Source: a virus
Lineage: Duplodnaviria; Caudoviricetes
Virus record (IMG/VR): IMGVR_UViG_3300028048_000055
Location: 101,062 to 165,061 of that record
DNA: 64,000 nt
Reading direction: 5' to 3' (one strand)
Shown: one piece after another, positions 2,752 to 50,400 of the stretch
Layout: the number at the start of each line of letters is the position of its first letter
How positions within the stretch are numbered: position 1 is the first letter of the stretch
The notes under the pieces: generated by a model
The model's input: the letters and a program-made list of their open reading frames with translations, nothing else
The model's database searches: none
Told to the model about the DNA's origin: nothing
Position numbers and translations under genes: made by a program

Positions 2752-3060
2752 ATGACACTTGAAGAATTTAAAGCAATAGTAAGAAAACATACACGTTTAC
2801 CTTTGTCAAAGCTAGATGCATATGCAGAGGATGTATATAAGAATCCATGTTTTGAAGAATGGTTATGGGATGGAGAAGTTCCACAGATTGTAGCACTTCA
2901 TGATTTGCATACTATTACTTTTCAGACTGGTAATAGATTGTTGGAAGCTCGAGAAAAAGTTCTTGAAAAAATGCCTATGGATAAGGCAAAGATATTTATC
3001 GAAAATAAACTTAATGATTTCTTAGAAAGAGTCAACCTTCAAAAGAAGAATTTATTATGA
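2752..3060 (+). CDS. hypothetical protein
   Basis: SD GAGGAG. Confidence 0.6.
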   Translation: MTLEEFKAIVRKHTRLPLSKLDAYAEDVYKNPCFEEWLWDGEVPQIVALHDLHTITFQTGNRLLEAREKVLEKMPMDKAKIFIENKLNDFLERVNLQKKNLL

Positions 3061-20504: not shown

Positions 20505-21653
20505 ATGTATATACCGAAGTTAGAAGATTATTATCGATTAGTAGATGAAGGTTTATTATCAAAGCATGAAACTGAAGATTTAGTCGGTTTCAAGTATAAT
20601 ATTCATACTACTTTTAATAAGCTATGGAATGACGTTACTCTTAACGCCCGTGGTATTACTTTTGATAAGCATACCGGTAAAATTGTTGCACGTCCTTTCC
20701 GAAAGTTCTTCAATCACTCGGAATTTATTACTATTGACCATGCAACAACGGAGCTTTATGATATTGTTCCACAAGAATATCGTCCGAATATTTCTGGCCC
20801 TTTCAGAGTTATGGATAAGCTTGATGGTTTCCTCGCTATTACGTTCTATAATCCCTACACAGAAAAGTGGCAGGTAAAGACTGGTGGTTCATTTCAGGCA
20901 AAGCAGTCTGATTGGGGTCAACATTGGCTTGATGAACATGTCAATACCGATAAGATGAAACTTGAAAATACCTATCTTTTCGAAGGTATTTGGAGTGGTG
21001 ATAGACATGTAGTCAAGTATGACTATGAAGCTCTTAAATTGCTCGCTGTTATCCCGAATGCAACTGGTAATGAATTACCATTATCTGACATTATCCAAGC
21101 AGCAAATGATTTGGGTGTAGAAATGGCAGAAGTTAAGCAGTATTCTAATTTCAATGATATGCTTAAGGAAGTTGCTGATTATCCGTCTACACTTGAAGGC
21201 GTTGTCGTTACATTCGATAACGGTTATAAGTGCAAGGTTAAGGGTATTCAGTATTGTGAGATGTTCATGGTATTGAACAACTTGACTGAAAGAGAAATTT
21301 ACATGAGATATGATCCGGTTAAGGATATTGTTTATGCTAATGTAAATCCGGCAAATGGCTATAAACCGCTTGATGAAGAAGTTCTTGTGGTTCCTGAAGA
21401 ATTGCCGGAAATTTCAGAATATGTAAAGGTTCTTAAAACCAGACAACACGCATTGTTTGAAACTGTATTAAATATGGCCAAGGAAATCCTTAAGACCGGT
21501 TTTGAAGGTAAGGCTTTATACGATGAAGTATGCAATCGTTGGAAGAATAAACCGGAACTTATCGGTGCAACAATGGGTGCAATAAAGTCTTTACAGAGAG
21601 GCGATACTGTATTCTCTACAGCTAAACTTGCTGTCAAGAAACTTTTACGATAA
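20505..21653 (+). CDS. rnlA: RNA ligase 1 (T4 Rnl1/RnlA family)
   Basis: ARGITF...ARPFRKFFN, motif I KLDG, TYLFE, EGVVV, KxK. Confidence 0.85.
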   Translation: MYIPKLEDYYRLVDEGLLSKHETEDLVGFKYNIHTTFNKLWNDVTLNARGITFDKHTGKIVARPFRKFFNHSEFITIDHATTELYDIVPQEYRPNISGPFRVMDKLDGFLAITFYNPYTEKWQVKTGGSFQAKQSDWGQHWLDEHVNTDKMKLENTYLFEGIWSGDRHVVKYDYEALKLLAVIPNATGNELPLSDIIQAANDLGVEMAEVKQYSNFNDMLKEVADYPSTLEGVVVTFDNGYKCKVKGIQYCEMFMVLNNLTEREIYMRYDPVKDIVYANVNPANGYKPLDEEVLVVPEELPEISEYVKVLKTRQHALFETVLNMAKEILKTGFEGKALYDEVCNRWKNKPELIGATMGAIKSLQRGDTVFSTAKLAVKKLLR

Positions 21654-40829: not shown

Positions 40830-41153
40830 ATGACCGTTGAAATTAAGAAATATAAAAAGAAACCAGTTCAGGTCGAAGCAATTCAGATTCCAAACATCGA
40901 TGATGAAGAAGATGCAGCTGAAATCATCGAATGGGGTCAGGGAAAACTCAGATATGATGATGAAACATATCCACGTAGCGGACCGGTGATTGGGCTTGAA
41001 ACTTCAACTGGTCATCATTATGCCTGCCCTGGAGACTGGATTATTAAAGGTATTGATGGAACATTCTATGCAACTACCGATGATACTTTCCAGAAACTCT
41101 ATGAAGAAGCAGATACTGATGTAACGACCAATAATGGTGTAATTACATGGTAA
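40830..41153 (+). CDS. phage protein (KKPVxVEA...PGDWIIKG family)
   Basis: KYKKKPVQVEAIQ, PGDWIIKG, FQKLYE; start revised. Confidence 0.7.
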   Translation: MTVEIKKYKKKPVQVEAIQIPNIDDEEDAAEIIEWGQGKLRYDDETYPRSGPVIGLETSTGHHYACPGDWIIKGIDGTFYATTDDTFQKLYEEADTDVTTNNGVITW

Positions 41154-41365
41154 ATAAAGACACAGATTATTTTAACCATATAATTAATTACTGGGCAGAT
41201 AAAGAAGCAACCAGAAAATTATATGGTGAAGATTGTGACCGTTGGGAAGATTACCGTCCATGGAAACACAATGATTACAAATCTGAAATAACCAACAAGA
41301 TAGCAAAAAGCTATTATAAAAACAAAAATTTAACAAAAACAAAACAAACAAACGAGGATAAAAAT

Positions 41366-42007
41366 ATGTTTGACTTCAATATGGGTAATATGTTTAACGG
41401 TATGTTCGGCAAGGTTGAGAAGGGTAAGTGTGCCTTCGCAATGGGTGGCGGCATCGCAGTCAAGACCAGCAATGGTTATAAGACTTATAACGTCAAGAAG
41501 CAGCGTTTGACCAACGTTACTAACTTCTGTTTCGACGCGTCTGATTTCTTCTTCGTTCTCCCGACCGCAAAGGTTGCAGTTGGTGACGTCATTCTTGTCG
41601 GTGGTAAGCCGAAGTGCGTTATTGAAGTTCTGAAGAAGTCCATCAAGGTTATCGACTATGAAAATAGCGAAATCCGTGAAATTGTTCCGGAACGCCATGT
41701 CTTCATGGGTGCGACAGTCTTCTATGGTAAGATTACTAGCATGTTCGGTGCTGGCATCGGTAAGGGCAAGGGCATTATGTCCAAGATTATGCAGCTCATG
41801 ATGATGAAGAGCTTGATGGGCGGTAATGGCAATAATGACGGTGGTAACTTGATGCAGATGATGATGATGCAGCAGTTCCTCGGCGGTGGCGCAGCTAATA
41901 CCGAAGATATGTTTGAAAATATGTTTGACATTCAGATCGATGAGGATGAAGACGCCGCAAAGACTGATGCAGACGATAATGATGACGAAGACACGGAAGA
42001 AAACTAA
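41366..42007 (+). CDS. conserved phage protein with Met/Gly-rich C-terminus, upstream of vWA gene
   Basis: SD GAGGA before MFDFNMGNMF; the track ORF extends in frame to 41147. Confidence 0.65.
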   Translation: MFDFNMGNMFNGMFGKVEKGKCAFAMGGGIAVKTSNGYKTYNVKKQRLTNVTNFCFDASDFFFVLPTAKVAVGDVILVGGKPKCVIEVLKKSIKVIDYENSEIREIVPERHVFMGATVFYGKITSMFGAGIGKGKGIMSKIMQLMMMKSLMGGNGNNDGGNLMQMMMMQQFLGGGAANTEDMFENMFDIQIDEDEDAAKTDADDNDDEDTEEN

Positions 42008-42019
42008 GGAGGTTAACCA

Positions 42020-42901
42020 ATGGGTGGCGGAAGCTTTGATTATTCCAGCTATAAAACTTATTCCACTAGTGTAGGTAAGTGTGTTGACACTCGTGGCTAT
42101 GTAACTAAGGGTCAGACTTTTACTGCACGTTCTCTTGACAAGGAACTTGATCCAAGAAATGTAATTCGTGAATGTTGTAATTCTAAGGAACATCCGAATA
42201 CTCTCCCTGTTATTCTTGCACTTGACGTAACTGGTTCTATGGGCTCTGCATGTATGCGTACTGCTGAAGCTCTTGGCCCGATTGTTATGAACTTGCTCGA
42301 AAAGTATAAGGATCGTGATATCGAATTCCTTATCATGGGTATCGGTGATGTCGAATGCGATAATTATCCTATTCAGGCATCTCAGTTCGAATCTGACGTT
42401 CGTATTTCCAAGGCAATCGACAAGATTTACATGGAACATGGCGGTGGCGGTAATATGTATGAATCTTACTCTGCTGCATGGTATTTCGGACTTAACCAGA
42501 CTAAGCTCGACTGTTATGACAAGCAAGGTCGTAAGGGTGTTATCATTACCATGGGTGATGAACCGCTCAATCCATATCTTGAACGTAATGGTTTGAATGA
42601 AGCTACTGGTAGATCTGCTCAGGGTAATGTTGAAACTAAGGCACTTTATGAACAAGCAAAGGATAAGTTCGATATTTATCATATTGCAGTTGATGATGAT
42701 GCTACAGCCTATAGAAGCTATGAATCGCTGATTAAGAAGACTTTTGGTGAGCTTCTCGGTGATAACCTTAAGGTTGCAACAATTAACTCCCTCCCTGTTA
42801 TGATTGAGAATTGTATTAAGCAAACTCTTGAACATAACGGTGGCGGTAATGACAAGCCGAATACGCAAGTCATTAATGAAGCAGGTGAAATTACTTGGTA
42901 A
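42020..42901 (+). CDS. von Willebrand factor A (vWA) domain protein
   Basis: MGGGSF start; LALDVTGSM MIDAS; GGGGN..ESY; ITMGDE. Confidence 0.85.
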   Translation: MGGGSFDYSSYKTYSTSVGKCVDTRGYVTKGQTFTARSLDKELDPRNVIRECCNSKEHPNTLPVILALDVTGSMGSACMRTAEALGPIVMNLLEKYKDRDIEFLIMGIGDVECDNYPIQASQFESDVRISKAIDKIYMEHGGGGNMYESYSAAWYFGLNQTKLDCYDKQGRKGVIITMGDEPLNPYLERNGLNEATGRSAQGNVETKALYEQAKDKFDIYHIAVDDDATAYRSYESLIKKTFGELLGDNLKVATINSLPVMIENCIKQTLEHNGGGNDKPNTQVINEAGEITW

Positions 42902-42912
42902 TTCAAAAGGGG

Positions 42913-42941
42913 TTGAAAAACCCCTTATTTTTTTCTATATT
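42913..42941 (+). promoter_or_regulatory. promoter TTGAAA-N17-TATATT embedded in a terminator hairpin
   Basis: aaggggtt-gaaa-aacccctt. Confidence 0.65.
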
Positions 42942-42983
42942 TGTTTGGAATGATAACGATAACCGATAAGAAAAGGAGGATTT

Positions 42984-44142
42984 ATGAGCATAGTTAACGC
43001 ACGAATTATCGTTGGCGCTAACTATGGTTGAATAAACCATAGGTGATGAAGGTAAAGGCACAGCGGTAGCTTTTTATACAAAAAATTCTATCGGTAAAGT
43101 TTTAAATGTATTGACAAATGGTGGTGCACAGAGAGGTCATTCTGTTATCTCTGATGTAGGTGATTTTACATTCAAGCATTTTGGATCTGGAACTTGTTAT
43201 AATGCAGACAGTTATTATTGTCAGTATTTTATTCTTAATCCGATGCAGTTTGTTAAAGAATATAGACAGTTAAGAGATAAGATTCCACTCTTTAACAATA
43301 TCAAGTTTTATAGACATGTAAACTGTAAATGGTCTACTCCCTTTGATCAAATGTTTAATCTTGCAATCGAAGCTAGTAGAGGTGCAGAAAGACATGGTTC
43401 TTGTGGAATGGGTATTTGGGAAACTGTATTAAGATATAATAAAACTATTACTTATACTTTAAGCGATTTCATGAATCTTATAAGAGAAGATAAAGTAAAG
43501 TATCTTCAAAATGTGAAGAATTATTTTAATATCCGTATGAAAGAACTTAATGTAAAACTTCCTAAGGAACTTATTGAACCTTGGAATAGTGATTTTCTTA
43601 TTGAACATTTTATTCAAGACTGTAAGTTCATTGCTTCTACTGTAATACCTGTTTCTAATATTACTGATATCAGTAATAACTATCAGGAAATTATTTTCGA
43701 AAATGGTCAGGGATTACTTTTAACATCCAGTATATTTGATGACCATACGACACCGAGTAATACTGGTTGTCATGATGCAATGGATATTATTATAAATGAA
43801 CTTCATATTCCTTGTGAAAATGTTACAGTTCATTATATTACGAGACCGTATCTTACTAGACATGGTAATGGTTCTCTTATTGGTGAAACTGATAAGAATC
43901 ATATTGCTGGTTCCGTTCCTGAAGACAGGACAAATCATTACAATGAAACTCAAGGTCGATTTAGATATGCTGGATTAGATATTCATGATTTACTTAATAG
44001 GGTTAAGAATGATTATCAAGCTATGCATGCTAGTGGATTAAAAATTGAAGTTACACATTGTGATGAAATGGATAGAGTAAATGAATTCGAAAAAGTGTTT
44101 GGCCAATCTGTCATCCATACATTCGAATCTCCTAAAATTTAA
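42984..44142 (+). CDS. purA: adenylosuccinate synthetase-like protein with a 16-nt coding gap (43029-43044)
   Basis: SD AAGGAGG; IIVGANYG|DEGKG, NGGAQRGH, HGSCGMG, FENGQG, YLTRHGNG; gap splits the P-loop. Confidence 0.75.
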
Positions 44143-44172
44143 AAAGGATTGGTTTTATCCAATCCTTTTTTA
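44142..44172. terminator. bidirectional terminator
   Basis: aaaaaggattgg/ccaatccttttt. Confidence 0.75.
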
Positions 44173-44188
44173 TTTTCATATTAATAAA

Positions 44189-45040
44189 TTACCAATCATA
44201 TTCACGAGTATCTTCTGGTTCAGGAATTCGTTTCTGACCATAAGACATTTCAACAACTTCAAAATATTCAGCGTTTTCTATACCTTCTGGATTTTTATTA
44301 TAAGTATCAGATATATCTTTTTTCTTTCCATTAACAACGGCAAATATTAAAGTTTCGCCATCATCCCATGGACATCCACAGTCATCTATATCAGTTGCAA
44401 TGTCAGAAGAAATATTTTCGCAGTCATATACTTCGTCATCTGTTGGAAGATGATCAAATATAAAAGCAATAGAGCATTCATATTTAATATATTCTCCATC
44501 GTCAGTAATATCATAAGTAACTTCGACCTTTTTATCGGGATAATTTGTTTTTAAATATTTTTCAACCTCGGCAACATAATCTGCACAATCGCTTTCTTCA
44601 CTACTAGTATCATAGCCATCTTCTGCATAGTAATCCGGGTCATAGAATTCTGGACGTGTTGACGGGTCATAGAAATCACCCTTTCTTTCTACGATATAGC
44701 CTTGTTTTTTAAGGTATTGTTTTGCTTCATTAAGATTCATACCTACTCCTCTATTAAATTCTGTATTTTCGTTGATTTCTCGGAAGAACTTTTCGATATC
44801 TTGCTTAGTATAAAGTTTCTTGTATTTTCTTGTTGATAACATTGTTACCATCAACATATCAAAATAATTCTGAACTTTTGCAATACGAACCTTTTCTGGT
44901 GAATACAAGATCATATCTGTTTTAAGGACATATTTTTTTCGTAATGCAGTCTGTCTGAATATATGAAGCAAATCTGGTTTTCTTTCACCAAATGTAACTA
45001 CTCCATTTTTAAACTGTGGGTTTGAGAAATCGTAAGTCAT
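44189..45040 (-). CDS. late acidic protein; internal start at 44740 (MNLNEAKQYLKKQGYIVE)
   Basis: TATAAATA 45045-45052 (-); internal SD GAGGAG before ATG 44740. Confidence 0.6.
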   Translation of the reverse strand: MTYDFSNPQFKNGVVTFGERKPDLLHIFRQTALRKKYVLKTDMILYSPEKVRIAKVQNYFDMLMVTMLSTRKYKKLYTKQDIEKFFREINENTEFNRGVGMNLNEAKQYLKKQGYIVERKGDFYDPSTRPEFYDPDYYAEDGYDTSSEESDCADYVAEVEKYLKTNYPDKKVEVTYDITDDGEYIKYECSIAFIFDHLPTDDEVYDCENISSDIATDIDDCGCPWDDGETLIFAVVNGKKKDISDTYNKNPEGIENAEYFEVVEMSYGQKRIPEPEDTREYDW

Positions 45041-45061
45041 ATATTATTTATATTAAAACCA

Positions 45062-45090
45062 TTTACAAATACATTTCATTTTACTATATT
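45062..45090 (+). promoter_or_regulatory. early promoter TTTACA-N17-TATATT
   Basis: Consensus match. Confidence 0.7.
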
Positions 45091-45119
45091 ATAATCAAAT
45101 TTAAAAAGGATTATAAATT

Positions 45120-45521
45120 ATGATTTCTAAAGAAGATCTTGAAAAATTCTGTGATATTTCTGAAAAAATCGAACAAGAATTGAGACGTATTGTCCCTATC
45201 CTTGAAGATGTTTACGGCAAAAACGCTCTTAAGCTTTCAGAAAAGAAAGAAGTTCGTTTTGTCGATATTTCTATAAATTTAAAAGGCTATATTGATTGCA
45301 GGATATATAGTAATTATATATCAGATAATCTTAATATCCCTTATCGAATTGAACTTAAGTATTTAACTATGCCAGATGATAAATTTGCTGCATACATGAA
45401 AAAAGAAAAGGAATCACTTGATAAGGAACGTGCTGAAACAGCAAAAAAAGAAGCTGAAGAACGTGCATTGTATGTAAAACTTCGTGAAAAGTATGGTGAT
45501 TTGGAAAATTTTCAATTTTAA
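45120..45521 (+). CDS. hypothetical protein
   Basis: SD AAGGA. Confidence 0.6.
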   Translation: MISKEDLEKFCDISEKIEQELRRIVPILEDVYGKNALKLSEKKEVRFVDISINLKGYIDCRIYSNYISDNLNIPYRIELKYLTMPDDKFAAYMKKEKESLDKERAETAKKEAEERALYVKLREKYGDLENFQF

Positions 45522-45554
45522 AATTTAAAAGGATATAAAATACAATTTTCATTC

Positions 45555-45675
45555 TATAAATAAAATATATAGAGTGAAGACTATATAAAGACATATAAGA
45601 GTTTTTATAAAACCCGTATGGTTTCGTTCTTCACATTAGATTCCATATGGGTTTTTCTTTTTGGAGTGAAGACCA
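45555..45675 (+). promoter_or_regulatory. late promoter plus paired-hairpin leader RNA with complementary loops
   Basis: See findings. Confidence 0.65.
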
Positions 45676-46464
45676 ATGCAATATTACATTTACAAAATTA
45701 CAAATAAGCTTAATGGTAAAATTTATATAGGTCAACATAAAGTTCCTTTAATTAAAGAAAACTTTAGAAGATATATGGGTAAAGGTATTGCTATTCAAGA
45801 AGCAATTAAAAAATATGGAAAAGAAAATTTTGATAAAGAAATTATAGAATATATTGACGATGATGAAAAACATGAATATGTTTCTGAACGTGAAAAATAT
45901 TGGATAGCATATTATAACTGTATGACACCAAATGGTTATAATATTAGTCCAGGCGGCGAGGGCGGATGCACAAGCGAAAGTGGTAAAAAAGGAGCAGAAA
46001 CAAGAAAACGTAATGGAACAAATAAACGAACACCAGAACAGTGCATAAAAATATCTAATGCAGTAAAAGGTAAACCAAAATCAGAATTACATAAACAACA
46101 TTTATCTGAACATCATAGATTAAGAACATTACATAAAGTTCAATTCAAATCTGACGGTCATATCGAGGAAACATTCGATTCTGTCAAAACATTGGCAATT
46201 AAATATAATATAAGAACTGAAATGATATTACGTAGAGCATCAGAAGCTGATAAATTTTGTAATGGTATAAAAATAATAGATATAATATTACCAGAAGTAG
46301 TTAAACGCCATAAGATGGTTAAACAAGGTTTATTTTTAGATCCAGTAAAGCAAGATATTGTTCCATATTATGTTTTAAGAAATAGAAAATGTGGTAATGC
46401 TAAAAATAATGAAATATATAGAAATTTAGATTTATTTAAATGTTTTATTAAGTATAATGATTAA
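45676..46464 (+). CDS. GIY-YIG (Seg-like) homing endonuclease with NUMOD3-like repeats
   Basis: YIYKITNKLNGKIYIGQ, REKYWI, GYNISPGG, KSELHKQHLSE. Confidence 0.85.
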   Translation: MQYYIYKITNKLNGKIYIGQHKVPLIKENFRRYMGKGIAIQEAIKKYGKENFDKEIIEYIDDDEKHEYVSEREKYWIAYYNCMTPNGYNISPGGEGGCTSESGKKGAETRKRNGTNKRTPEQCIKISNAVKGKPKSELHKQHLSEHHRLRTLHKVQFKSDGHIEETFDSVKTLAIKYNIRTEMILRRASEADKFCNGIKIIDIILPEVVKRHKMVKQGLFLDPVKQDIVPYYVLRNRKCGNAKNNEIYRNLDLFKCFIKYND

Positions 46465-46474
46465 TATAAAGGGG

Positions 46475-46503
46475 TTTACAAAACTCCTTTTATTTTTTAT
46501 ATT
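46475..46503 (+). promoter_or_regulatory. promoter TTTACA-N17-TATATT within a hairpin
   Basis: aaaggggttt/aaactccttt. Confidence 0.65.
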
Positions 46504-46530
46504 TAATATAGTTTTTAAAAGGATATTAAA

Positions 46531-47805
46531 ATGGAACTTTCTCAAAAAGAAATTAATGAAATTAAAAATTATAAACCGCTTGATGAAGATAAGTATATTA
46601 TCAATTATCTCTCAGATCTGGACATTTATAAAATTTCAATGACTCAGTGCTTGCTTCATAAGCGACCGAATGAATGGGCTAAGTGGAAGTGGAAGCTTCG
46701 CTCTAAAGATATTCATCTTGGATATCTTGTTGATGCGGTAAATCGTGAAGTTGATCATCTTTGTACGCTTCGTTGGCAACCTTTTGAACTTGATGCTCTT
46801 TCCAAGATTTATTATATTAAGCCTGATTATGTCGATTGGCTTGAAGATTTCCGTCTTAAGAGAAAGTATATCAAGATTACTCGCCGTGGTGACGATCTTG
46901 AAATTGAAGCAGAAGGTCCGCAGCTCAAGGTCACATGGTTTGAAATTTATGTGATGGAAATTATTCAGGAACTTTATCTTCGTCAGTTTGAATTTGATTT
47001 TGAAAAGGCAAAGGCAAATCTTGCAGAAGCAGTTGATAAGTTTAATGCTGCAATTGATTCTGGCTTGAAGTTCGGTTTTGCTGATTTTGGTGCTCGCCGT
47101 AGACATTCTTTTGCATGGCAGGATTATGCAGTTGGTTACATGGCTAAGAACTGTAAGTGCTTTGTTGGTACCTCTAACCTTTATTTCGCCATTAAATACG
47201 GTATAAAGGCAATTGGAACGTTTGCACATGAAATGTATGCTTTGTTCCAGGGACTTGATGATGTACCTATTCGTCAGTCTCAGAAGGCAGTATTCGACGC
47301 ATGGACGCAGGAATATCGAGGCGATCTTGGTATTGCATTGTCTGATAACTTTGGATTTATTCCGTTCCTTCGCGACTTTGATAAGTTCTATGCAAAGCTG
47401 TTCGATGGTTGTAGACACGATTCCGGTGATCCGATTGTTTGGGGTGAAATGTTAATTGCACATTATAAGGCACTTGGCATCGACCCGACTACTAAGACTG
47501 GTTGTTGGTCTGATTCTCTCGATGTTGATAAGGCAATTAAGATTGCACAGCATTTCAATGGTCGTATTAAGGTCAGCTTCGGTATCGGTACTTATTTCAT
47601 GGCAAATCTTGTAACTCAGACTGCTGGTATTAAGCCGCTTTCCATGGTTATGAAAGTTGTCAAGGTTAATGGCAAGGACACGGTGAAACTCAGTGATTGT
47701 CCTGAGAAAAACATGTGCGAATCTCCTACTTATATAGACTATGTTAAGCAGGTATTCGATTATATTCCATTGGATGAATGGAAGGGCGGTCTTACCGTAA
47801 TTTAA
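46531..47805 (+). CDS. pncB: nicotinate phosphoribosyltransferase
   Basis: DLDIYK, DFGARRRHS, GTSN, GTFAHE, RHDSGDP, SDSL, FGIGT, KLSD. Confidence 0.92.
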   Translation: MELSQKEINEIKNYKPLDEDKYIINYLSDLDIYKISMTQCLLHKRPNEWAKWKWKLRSKDIHLGYLVDAVNREVDHLCTLRWQPFELDALSKIYYIKPDYVDWLEDFRLKRKYIKITRRGDDLEIEAEGPQLKVTWFEIYVMEIIQELYLRQFEFDFEKAKANLAEAVDKFNAAIDSGLKFGFADFGARRRHSFAWQDYAVGYMAKNCKCFVGTSNLYFAIKYGIKAIGTFAHEMYALFQGLDDVPIRQSQKAVFDAWTQEYRGDLGIALSDNFGFIPFLRDFDKFYAKLFDGCRHDSGDPIVWGEMLIAHYKALGIDPTTKTGCWSDSLDVDKAIKIAQHFNGRIKVSFGIGTYFMANLVTQTAGIKPLSMVMKVVKVNGKDTVKLSDCPEKNMCESPTYIDYVKQVFDYIPLDEWKGGLTVI

Positions 47806-47830
47806 ATAAATTAATATTTACAGAATTAAT

Positions 47831-47971
47831 ATGAAAAAGTTGATTAAAATTATTTGCGCAGTTCTCGGTATTTCTCTTGCGAGTGGGTTAGTCTATAGAG
47901 AACGAGAAACAATTATGGATCTACGAAAGAGACTCGTAGAGATGAGGCATTTCACAGTTAATAAGAAGTAA
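47831..47971 (+). CDS. small single-TM protein
   Basis: 46-aa ORF MKKLIKIICAVLGISLASGLVY... Confidence 0.4.
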   Translation: MKKLIKIICAVLGISLASGLVYRERETIMDLRKRLVEMRHFTVNKK

Positions 47972-48044
47972 ATATCATTTTACATTTCTACTGTGAAATG
48001 TTTTCTATATTTGTACTATAAAGTTTAAAATAAAAGGAAAATCT

Positions 48045-48791
48045 ATGAAAGACTTAACTCAAAATGTGATTAATTGGACCAAGGACTTTTTTAAGGCAGT
48101 AGGCAAGACTGATGCAGTTCTTGGTATTTCTGGCGGTAAAGATAGTTCAGTAGTGGCTGCAATTTGTGTTGCTGCTCTTGGTAAGGAACATGTCCATGGA
48201 ATTTTGCTTCCGTGCGGAATTCAGAAGGATATTTCTGATTCCTATAAACTTGTAGATCATCTTGGTATCGATTATGATGTTCAAGATATTGAAACTCTTG
48301 TAAAGGAATCTCTGGCTCTGGTTCCTGGTGCAGATAAATCTTATGATGCAAAGACCAATGTTCCAGCTCGTATTCGAATGAATCAAATTATGGTAGCAGC
48401 ACAAACAAATAACTGGTTAATGGCTAATACCGGAAATCGCAGCGAAAATATAATTTCATGGATGACGCTATTTGGTGACCATGCGGGTAGTTTCGCGCCG
48501 CTTGATATGTTGACTACCGAAGAAGTTATTGAAATCGGCGATGACCTTGGATTACCTTATGAACTTACGCATAAAGTTCCTATTGATGGGCTTCAACCTC
48601 TTTCTGATGAAGAAAAATTTGGTTTTAGCTATCATGAAATTAATGAACTTATTAGAAAAGGAATTCGCGGCGAACATTATGATAAAATTATGAAAATGTT
48701 TAACGCTGGTAAGTTTAAACTTGAAATGTTAAAATTTGCACATTTTGATCCGAAGCTTCCGGATTATTTCAGAGATAATTTTAATATTTAA
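48045..48791 (+). CDS. nadE: NH3-dependent NAD+ synthetase
   Basis: LGISGGKDS, NVPARIRM, TGNRSE, TLFGD, DEEKFGFSY. Confidence 0.92.
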   Translation: MKDLTQNVINWTKDFFKAVGKTDAVLGISGGKDSSVVAAICVAALGKEHVHGILLPCGIQKDISDSYKLVDHLGIDYDVQDIETLVKESLALVPGADKSYDAKTNVPARIRMNQIMVAAQTNNWLMANTGNRSENIISWMTLFGDHAGSFAPLDMLTTEEVIEIGDDLGLPYELTHKVPIDGLQPLSDEEKFGFSYHEINELIRKGIRGEHYDKIMKMFNAGKFKLEMLKFAHFDPKLPDYFRDNFNI

Positions 48792-48813
48792 ACAAAATTT
48801 AAAAGAATAAAAA

Positions 48814-48936
48814 TATAAATATATTATAAAAGAATAATATGTGGAAGTTTTATTCTTGTTTAAATAAATTTTTGGAACGGTTAAAATACGAAACTTCCAC
48901 AATAGCGTGTTTTAATCGTTCTTTTTTATTAATATT
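48814..48936 (+). promoter_or_regulatory. late promoter plus paired-hairpin leader RNA with complementary loops
   Basis: See findings. Confidence 0.65.
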
Positions 48937-50400
48937 ATGACAAAAATTTGTGGAATTTATAAAATAACAAATAAAATTAATGGTAAATGCTATATTGGTC
49001 AGTCTAAAGATATAATTAAACGTTGGAAAACTGAATATAAATGGCGTAAATTAAATAACCATTTATTAGCTGCGTTTAATAAATATGGTCTTGAAAATTT
49101 TAATTTTGAAATTATTGAAGAATGTGAACCAAGTTTATTAAATGAACGTGAAAAATTTTGGATTAGTATTTATAATTCATTTGATAGAAATTTTGGTTAT
49201 AATAAAACATTAGGCGGTGCTGGTACACCTGGTCGTACTTTTGTAATGACTGAAGAAATAAAAAATAAAATTAGATTAGCTAATACCGGTCGTAAATTTA
49301 CTGCTGAACAGCTTGATGAATTTAGAAATATAATTAGAGATAATCAAATCGTTATATATTGCTATGAAACAAATAAGTATTATACTTCTATTGCCAATGC
49401 CGCCAGAGAATTAAATATTTGTAAAGATGCAATTAGACATGTTATAACAAATAAAAATAATCAGGCATCAAATTATAGATTTTGTAAAATAACAGACAAC
49501 ATAAATGATTTTGTTACCAACTGCCAACAAATAGATATTTATATAAAAGAAAATAATTTATCATTAAAACAATATTATAGCAAAATAAATCGTACCGATA
49601 AAAAGAAAGTTAAATGTATAGAAACAGATATTATATATGAATCTATCATGGATGCATCTATTAAAACAGGTATAAATGATAATAGTATAAGTAAATGTTG
49701 TAATAATAAGCAATATACTGCATTTAATTTACATTTTAAATTTGTAGATTTAAATGATATTAATAAAACTAATATAGATTCAAATAAGAAAAAAATAATT
49801 TCTGAAAAAATATCTAAAATTCAAAAAGGTAGGATTAAATCTCCAAAAGAACGGGAAAAATTAAGTCAAGCGCATTCTGGCAGAAAATTGACAGATGAGC
49901 ATAAACGGAAAATTGGATTGGCGGGTAAAGGTAGAAAACTTTCAGAAGAAACAAAACAAAAAATGAGTATATCTAAAAAGAATGCAGAATATATTATAAA
50001 AAGTCGAAAACCTGTAAAATGTATTGAAACTGGCCAAATTTGGGAAAGTATAGAAGATGCAGAAAAAGAAACGGGTTTACAGGTATCGAGATGCTGTAGA
50101 GGTTTGTATTTAAATACAGGTAATTTACATTTTGAATTTATAAATGCTATAGATAATGAAGAATTTTTAGATGCAAAAATGAAATTAAAACAAAATTGGT
50201 TAAAAACGCATAAACCAGTATATTGTATTAATAATAAAACAATATATAAAACTAATGTCGCTGCTGAAAAAGAATTAGGTACTGAACATCATAAAATAAC
50301 TAATTCTTGTAATAAAAATAAACCGTGTAAAGATGGTTATCAGTATAGATGGTTAACATCAGAAGAAATTAATAAATGGATAAAAAATTGTTTAATATAA
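48937..50400 (+). CDS. GIY-YIG homing endonuclease with NUMOD3/NUMOD1-like repeats
   Basis: GIYKITNKINGKCYIGQS, GYNKTLGG, repeated VKCIET..YESI and KLSEETKQKMS. Confidence 0.88.
   Translation: MTKICGIYKITNKINGKCYIGQSKDIIKRWKTEYKWRKLNNHLLAAFNKYGLENFNFEIIEECEPSLLNEREKFWISIYNSFDRNFGYNKTLGGAGTPGRTFVMTEEIKNKIRLANTGRKFTAEQLDEFRNIIRDNQIVIYCYETNKYYTSIANAARELNICKDAIRHVITNKNNQASNYRFCKITDNINDFVTNCQQIDIYIKENNLSLKQYYSKINRTDKKKVKCIETDIIYESIMDASIKTGINDNSISKCCNNKQYTAFNLHFKFVDLNDINKTNIDSNKKKIISEKISKIQKGRIKSPKEREKLSQAHSGRKLTDEHKRKIGLAGKGRKLSEETKQKMSISKKNAEYIIKSRKPVKCIETGQIWESIEDAEKETGLQVSRCCRGLYLNTGNLHFEFINAIDNEEFLDAKMKLKQNWLKTHKPVYCINNKTIYKTNVAAEKELGTEHHKITNSCNKNKPCKDGYQYRWLTSEEINKWIKNCLI

Follow-up and report, generated by a model that had tools for sequence, protein, structure and literature searches.

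The window is a stretch of 64,000 nucleotides within a 165-kb IMG/VR metagenome contig (G000). The contig covers ~40% of a jumbo phage, the whole genome of which is roughly 420 kb. Within window positions 41147-50400, the gene for a PurA-like ligase follows genes for a protein rich in Met and Gly and for a 293-aa protein that bears a DVTGSM motif; genes for NAPRTase (46531-47805) and NAD synthase (48045-48791) lie downstream of it. GIY-YIG endonuclease genes of the free-standing kind occur at 45676-46464 and 48937-50400; they are the endonuclease genes nearest to the ligase gene, 2.6 and 5.9 kb downstream of it. The neighbouring 293-aa and 283-aa proteins have no Pfam match. DNA 3' of the ligase gene (44189-46500) is strain-variable in comparison with contigs L027-L050 and L073-L077. 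The minus-strand gene there encodes 282, 283, 284 or 300 aa, depending on the strain, and only some of the contigs contain a 133-aa gene and a SegE-like GIY-YIG gene.

The ligase gene is 1159 nt long and consists of two reading frames, ORF1 and ORF2, separated by 16 nt (Table 1). The terminator-like hairpin of the upstream gene appears to set it apart as a unit of its own. The promoter of its own that a sequence-only reading of this DNA had assigned to the gene stands as a site upstream, at the level of a partial consensus match. The Shine-Dalgarno sequence AAGGAGG (42971-77) lies 6 nt ahead of ATG 42984.

Ahead of its final GGT the gap has the sequence UGAAUAAACCAUA. It contains stops in all three frames: TGA 43029-31 directly after the last ORF1 codon, TAA 43033-35 in the +1 frame and TAG 43040-42 in the third. 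The only triplet within it that is cognate to the last codon of ORF1 is the GGT at its end. After this GGT the +1 frame reads GAT GAA GGT AAA GGC and stays open for 366 codons, TAA included. The start codon, Shine-Dalgarno sequence, ORF1, TGA, both GGT codons, 8-bp stem and +1-frame DEGKG of the earlier description were all recovered at the same positions, base for base. A simple +1 shift is blocked by TAA 43033-35, as had been proposed, and TAG 43040-42 additionally closes the third frame. Single and double frameshifts are excluded, because all three frames stop inside the gap.

Table 1. Features of the PurA-like gene and its flanks (window positions)
Feature	Position	Strand	Basis
Terminator-like hairpin and T-run, end of upstream 293-aa gene	42907-42935 (hairpin 42907-26)	+	sequence
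Sigma-70-like promoter match TTGAAA-17-TATATT, 10/12, consensus match only	42913-42941	+	
5' leader particular to the gap-bearing lineage	42945-42983	+	pairwise alignment with L022
ORF1, 15 codons, MSIVNARIIVGANYG, beta-strand preceding the P-loop	42984-43028	+	sequence, N-termini of relatives
5' stem-loop, outer stem CAUAGUUA/UAACUAUG, inner stem of 7 pairs	42989-43026	+	folding
Take-off hairpin, 8 perfect pairs, loop GAAUA	43022-43042	+	folding
Proposed take-off codon GGT, last of ORF1	43026-28	+	
Stop TGA immediately 3' of take-off codon (TAA in contig L033)	43029-43031	+	
16-nt coding gap, stops in all three frames	43029-43044	+	
Proposed landing codon GGT, last three bases of the gap	43042-44	+	
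ORF2 from GAT (DEGKG...), 365 sense codons and TAA (44140-42)	43045-44142	+	
TTG taken as start by gene callers (343-aa product)	43111-43113	+	
Terminator-like hairpin, 12 pairs, 3' of gene	44141-44170	+	

ORF2 matches the adenylosuccinate synthetase profile PF00709 (E 1.4e-21, 77.2 bits against a gathering cut-off of 27) and PHROG 1211 (E 2e-39). Its match to solved PurA 3hid is weak (E 1e-7). The protein is ~65 residues shorter than 3hid (432 aa), with GDEGKG kept. On these matches the product is probably a short ligase of the PurA family and is called PurA-like; it is named neither PurA nor PurZ. The PF00709 match begins at profile position 8. The strand preceding the P-loop is absent from it and is therefore supplied by the 15-codon ORF1.

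In this phage lineage the gap is genuine, fixed and of long standing. It occurs in 31 of 31 contigs, namely the window and 30 independently assembled contigs (some >400 kb) from ~30 ENA/Logan samples, gathered by protein search through a 90% cluster of 22 sequences; the members listed, 15 of the 22, are all truncated gene-caller products of 343 or 299 aa. The contigs comprise 16 haplotypes of the gene, with synonymous divergence up to 0.18 and no indel anywhere in the 1159 nt. Absence of the insert from reads, or its restriction to one genome with relaxed selection downstream, had been named in advance as evidence against a functional element; across assemblies the insert is neither absent nor unique. 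An assembly artefact is thereby ruled out. Since the insert is common to every haplotype, it is older than the common ancestor of all sampled strains. No uninterrupted allele of the lineage occurs among the 31 assemblies or in protein clusters. The sole change inside the gap, a G-to-A substitution at 43030 in contig L033, makes the TGA a TAA and falls within the loop of the hairpin. One of the 16 gap sites is thus variable, against 0.29 of synonymous sites. Megablast of the locus against GenBank phages gave no match, and pattern scans of viral and metagenome contig sets, which may not include near-identical records, gave no gapped or ungapped allele of the species.

In more distant relatives the gap is absent (22 and 69 related loci). 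The strand is fused directly to GDEGKG in 90 of 91 of them (e.g. ARIIVGANYG). The ORF1 peptide likewise reads ARIIVGANYG, identical to intact relatives, and the joined product would read GANYG-DEGKG, as they do. The closest gap-free relative, L022, has 71% amino acid identity, and no relative at that identity or below has the insert. DNA of L022 and of the window is near-identical through the upstream terminator, up to CTATATTT. From there on, the window differs in ~35 additional nt with a perfect Shine-Dalgarno sequence, in an N-terminus that is longer and dissimilar, and in the gap; similarity returns to an ordinary ~80% at GGTGATGAAGG. This alignment pattern suggests that ~100 nt of the 5' end were replaced as a unit. 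The added leader of ~35 nt may offset a poor yield of the hop, or it may have come in with the gap. As side observations among the relatives, L001 (69% identity, 33.6-kb contig) has the P-loop GDCGKG at 3001-3018, whereas its near-twin L022 has GDEGKG, and in a 1478-nt ENA contig (L039:160-1203) the C-terminal two thirds of the present PurA-like gene follow a glycosyltransferase-like N-terminus (P0136, 347 aa), probably by chimeric assembly or recombination.

One relative has an interruption of another kind near the same motif. In L107 (358-420; IMG/VR contig G003, 138.7 kb) an in-frame TAG stands two codons ahead of GDEGKG, so that the frame reads IGA*VGFGDEGKG where relatives have IGANFGDEGKG. 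A hairpin (z -3.1) holds the stop in its loop. The gene is situated directly 3' of an HNH_3/AP2 endonuclease-like gene. The standard code applies in the G003 genome, which encodes no suppressor tRNA. L107 hints that homing endonucleases visit the P-loop-coding DNA of this PurA-like family. At the window locus, with its nearest GIY-YIG genes 2.6 and 5.9 kb off, a homing-endonuclease link is conjecture.

Purifying selection is strong on both sides of the gap. The 16 haplotypes differ at 117 sites of the gene, almost all of them synonymous third positions of the GDEGKG frame. Fractions of variable sites at codon positions 1, 2 and 3 are 0.012, 0.023 and 0.294, compared with 0.034, 0.027 and 0.232 in the intact upstream gene; intergenic DNA is variable at about 0.10-0.12 of sites. 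dN/dS is ~0.024 (0.023-0.024; Nei-Gojobori NG86; mean pS 0.138, maximum 0.18), and the value for the intact upstream neighbour is higher, 0.063 (Nei-Gojobori). Selection 3' of the gap, which the sequence-only reading had singled out for measurement, is not relaxed. No internal stop is found in ORF2 in any haplotype; together with the lack of indels this bears out the earlier observation that the gene has no other lesion.

These values leave hardly any room for an inactivating insertion, i.e. a pseudogene or an assembly artefact, for which one could cite the metagenomic origin of the record and the lack of the insert in relatives at 71% identity or below. The insert is found in 31 independent assemblies. 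The gene evolves under tighter constraint than its intact neighbour and has accumulated neither stops nor indels over 16 haplotypes with pS up to 0.18. The template-switch form of this idea, previously offered as an alternative, falls to the same dN/dS and the same contig count. A pseudogene is refuted as far as sequence data can do so.

DNA heterogeneity would evade the selection data in another way: slippage between the GGT repeats, across the hairpin, would yield a minority of genomes free of the 16 nt as the source of the enzyme, with the gapped form retained for some other reason, e.g. immunity to a homing endonuclease. Precise deletion classically acts on a perfect palindrome set between direct repeats, the gap has such a layout (3-bp repeat), and free-standing GIY-YIG genes lie downstream at the distances given above. 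This is nevertheless very improbable. All 31 consensus assemblies have the gap and protein clusters hold no uninterrupted allele; moreover, a beneficial revertant should spread and its deletion would be irreversible, so that the gapped form would vanish.

Gene callers start the protein at TTG 43111. This codon is TTA in contig L047, a synonymous Leu codon that cannot serve as a start; the L047 product is for this reason called from a later ATG (299 aa), and TTG 43111 is accordingly an internal codon. No ATG, GTG or TTG occurs in the P-loop frame between TAA 43033 and 43111. The proposal that a restart at 43111 would lack the P-loop thus holds, and is extended by the absence of any earlier start in that frame and by the TTG not being conserved. 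The 37 codons before TTG 43111 have a dN/dS of 0.046 (4 synonymous polymorphisms and 1 non-synonymous). Both polymorphisms in the 22 codons between the gap and 43111 are synonymous; those of ORF1 are 2 synonymous changes and S2N. Constraint 5' of any usable start is suggested by these 5 polymorphisms. A protein containing the P-loop, apparently the product that selection maintains, therefore requires skipping of the 16 nt, there being no frameshift route to it and no conventional start.

Termination-reinitiation would dispense with the joined product. Ribosomes would finish ORF1 and restart on a non-canonical codon (e.g. AUA 43039-41), to give a protein that begins at the P-loop and lacks the strand; ORF1 would only load ribosomes. 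The strong Shine-Dalgarno sequence of ORF1, the lack of one ahead of ORF2 and the position of the gap near the 5' end suit this scheme, and the three ORF1 polymorphisms are too few to prove selection on the peptide. It is unlikely all the same. No in-frame ATG, GTG or TTG precedes 43111, where the TTG is not conserved. In P-loop folds the preceding strand anchors the loop, as in the PurA structure, and the strand is fused to GDEGKG in nearly all relatives; ORF1 still encodes the peptide of the intact relatives. The matched GGU codons are left unexplained.

The genetic code is standard. Stop usage of the genome is TAA 70, TAG 13 and TGA 11, and its 38 tRNAs include no suppressor. Reassignment of TGA or TAG is ruled out by ORF statistics, stop usage and the tRNA set. 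A tRNA-Gly(GCC), reader of GGU, is encoded. The 38-tRNA block, outside the window, also contains a tRNA-like gene (G000:C1:44567-44641, ARAGORN) with a two-base 'anticodon' (aa), implying a six-membered anticodon loop.

Two stable RNA structures are predicted around the proposed take-off codon. The take-off hairpin pairs CTATGGTT (43022-29) with AACCATAG (43035-42) and has a free energy of -10.4 kcal/mol (z -4.8; none of 200 shuffles being as stable). Its 5' arm contains the take-off codon, and its closing pair includes the first base of the landing codon. The 5' stem-loop (-15.4 kcal/mol, z -3.85, 0 of 200 shuffles as stable) has no counterpart in gap-free relatives, the equivalent region of which has a z of about 0. 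CUAUG is common to the two structures. They are mutually exclusive, because the 3' arm of the 5' stem-loop (UAACUAUG) overlaps the 5' arm of the hairpin (CUAUGGUU). In free RNA the 5' stem-loop outcompetes the take-off hairpin, according to folding. Pairs of the take-off hairpin are invariant in all haplotypes; the 5' stem-loop is 100% paired in all of them, with one change of G-C to G-U. Since neither hairpin has covariation across haplotypes, the structural support is purely thermodynamic. The Rfam search gave nothing but a chance-level match to RT-4 (E 0.5; 19.5 bits, cut-off 73.5), which lies upstream of the gene.

The stable hairpin could also serve as a nuclease substrate, and the 16 nt might be removed at the RNA level as a micro-intron, with the ends rejoined by a phage or host ligase and ordinary translation thereafter. 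An Rnl1-type RNA ligase, attributed to this phage in the sequence-only reading, is indeed encoded (G000 121704-122306, window 20643-21245), and an RtcB ligase was found in addition; the selection data fit RNA removal as well as they fit hopping. It is nevertheless improbable. No known endonuclease fits, there is no bulge-helix-bulge shape and no Rfam match, and an 8-bp stem is too short for RNase III. All boundary pairs that restore the frame lie within the stem or 2 nt beyond it, with a stagger of at least 3 nt. Stem length and the stagger of possible cut sites rule out RNase III-type excision. A stop right after a codon that is repeated 3' serves no role in splicing, yet it is kept, as UGA or UAA. 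T4 likewise encodes Rnl1 and still uses bypassing at gene 60.

Programmed translational bypassing of the 16 nt is the best explanation, with a probability of about 0.6. Its signature, as first described, consists of the matched GGU codons, the stop and the hairpin, all of which hold, and a 5' stem-loop like that of T4 has been found in addition. Ribosomes would start at ATG 42984, aided by the strong Shine-Dalgarno sequence, and make the 15-residue strand. They would pause with peptidyl-tRNA-Gly on GGU 43026-28 and the UGA stop in the A site. The tRNA would release its codon, and the mRNA would slide by 16 nt while the take-off hairpin (43022-42) forms. Behind the ribosome the 5' stem-loop (42989-43026) would re-form and take the shared CUAUG strand from the hairpin, a takeover that would expose the landing GGU. 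Decoding would restart at GAU to give ...GANYG-DEGKG..., the intact P-loop of the PurA-like ligase. The predicted tryptic junction peptide is IIVGANYGDEGK and the predicted N-terminus MSIVNAR.

That ribosomes hop, how efficiently and to what end are inferred from these features. The gap may serve dosage control or may be a leftover of a homing-endonuclease event. Drop-off of peptidyl-tRNA could be high, the nascent chain having 15 residues, unlike the gene 60 signal. The matched GGT codons and the inverted repeat could stem from the mode of origin of the insert. It is slightly better than an even bet that the element is a minimal, self-contained cassette of ~100 nt, composed of a Shine-Dalgarno sequence, a 15-codon ORF within a 5' stem-loop, a stop and a 16-nt hairpin gap that shares a strand with that stem-loop, which directs a GGU-to-GGU hop with a 15-residue chain, has an origin separate from that of the T4 MobA cassette, took the place of the 5' end in a PurA-like gene and is preserved by selection. 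A wider class of short stop-in-hairpin gaps may exist, left behind in conserved phage motifs as homing endonucleases come and go, with this element as one example.

Further elements were sought in three ways. A split-HSP screen of the 165-kb record against its 424-kb relative G001 gave only a spurious match over tRNA genes. Scanning of G000 and G001 for the signature (codon, stop, hairpin, same codon) gave ~10 chance matches in each; the only other junction-aligned match, at G000 86950 (minus strand), is an out-of-frame coincidence inside an intact gene and was rejected. No second genuine element was found in either sequence. The scan for gapped canonical purA P-loops (TGGGG, 4-34 nt, GAYGARGGNAARGGNAAR) returned 37 loci, none with a P-loop gap; long ORFs among them are mostly uninterrupted purA-like genes, and the remainder are unrelated matches. 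Genes of this kind are routinely recorded as N-terminally short or broken; here gene callers cut the product to 343 or 299 residues, with loss of the P-loop.

Efficient natural bypassing has been shown in very few systems: T4 gene 60 and its homologues, the mitochondria of one yeast and, in part, Streptomyces phage Hau3. The literature search found no paper on bypassing in a gene of the PurA family. Shorter counterparts have long been anticipated in reviews (PMC5009743). If bypassing is confirmed, the 16-nt gap, set in a simple two-hairpin switch and present in 16 natural haplotypes, would be a compact test case for the minimum required for take-off, retention of peptidyl-tRNA and landing, for the need for a long nascent peptide, and for strand exchange between the 5' stem-loop and the one at take-off as the driver of forward sliding.

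Stop-hops and short hops are known from E. coli (Weiss et al. 1987), and a 29-nt hop reported in plaA of Prevotella loescheii was never followed up (PMC5009743). As in these, peptidyl-tRNA would re-pair here with a matched, non-overlapping codon across a stop; these hops are mostly synthetic or low-level, and none is known to be a conserved element under population-level selection. Mitochondria of Magnusiomyces capitatus contain 81 inserts (byps) of 27-55 nt that are bypassed precisely (bioRxiv 10.1101/2022.08.31.505936). The present gap resembles the byps in being a short, hairpin-forming insert in a conserved gene, with matched flanking codons and a poorly decodable codon after take-off. It differs in being a single AT-rich element in 165 kb, whereas byps are many, mobile, GC-rich and dependent on that mitochondrial translation system.

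The terminase gene of Hau3 has 10-nt inserts after UUA for which bypassing is proposed, and the junction peptide has been seen by mass spectrometry in E. coli (PMC10732093). The sequence-only reading had called the present gap a new short hop element; its signature is borne out, whereas short natural bypasses had already been proposed with the Hau3 inserts (PMC10732093). Both cases have a short gap in an essential-looking phage gene, protein alignments that exclude simple frameshifting, and local RNA structure that draws the landing codon near the take-off site. The slow A-site codon of Hau3 is the rare sense codon UUA, a proposed sensor of the host tRNA state; here it would be a stop.

Bypassing in T4 gene 60 was reportedly described by Huang in 1988; homologues of its cassette occur in myovirus topoisomerase genes (Manning & Atkins, bioRxiv 10.1101/2022.08.31.505936). 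The gene 60 signals are matched codons, a stop, a take-off codon in the 5' arm of a stem-loop, a 5' stem-loop, a nascent peptide and a Shine-Dalgarno-like element (bioRxiv 10.1101/2022.08.31.505936). The PurA-like gene differs from gene 60 in gap length (16 nt against 50), codon (GGU against GGA), residues before take-off (15 against 46, with no visible likeness to the nascent-peptide signal) and enzyme encoded (PurA-like ligase against topoisomerase). It has no Shine-Dalgarno-like element ~6 nt 5' of the landing codon, the gap being without GAG or GGAG there, no identified barrier to forward slippage and no adjacent MobA-type endonuclease. Nearly all of the gap lies within its hairpin, one strand of which is also used by the 5' stem-loop. 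Like gene 60, it has take-off and landing codons for Gly that are identical to each other, and joining at them gives the exact ancestral protein. The take-off codon is followed at once by a stop (TGA in 30 contigs, TAA in L033) and lies in the 5' arm of a stem-loop, with a separate 5' stem-loop upstream. In both genes two out-of-frame ORFs jointly specify a single conserved enzyme, and the phage is large and has many homing endonucleases.
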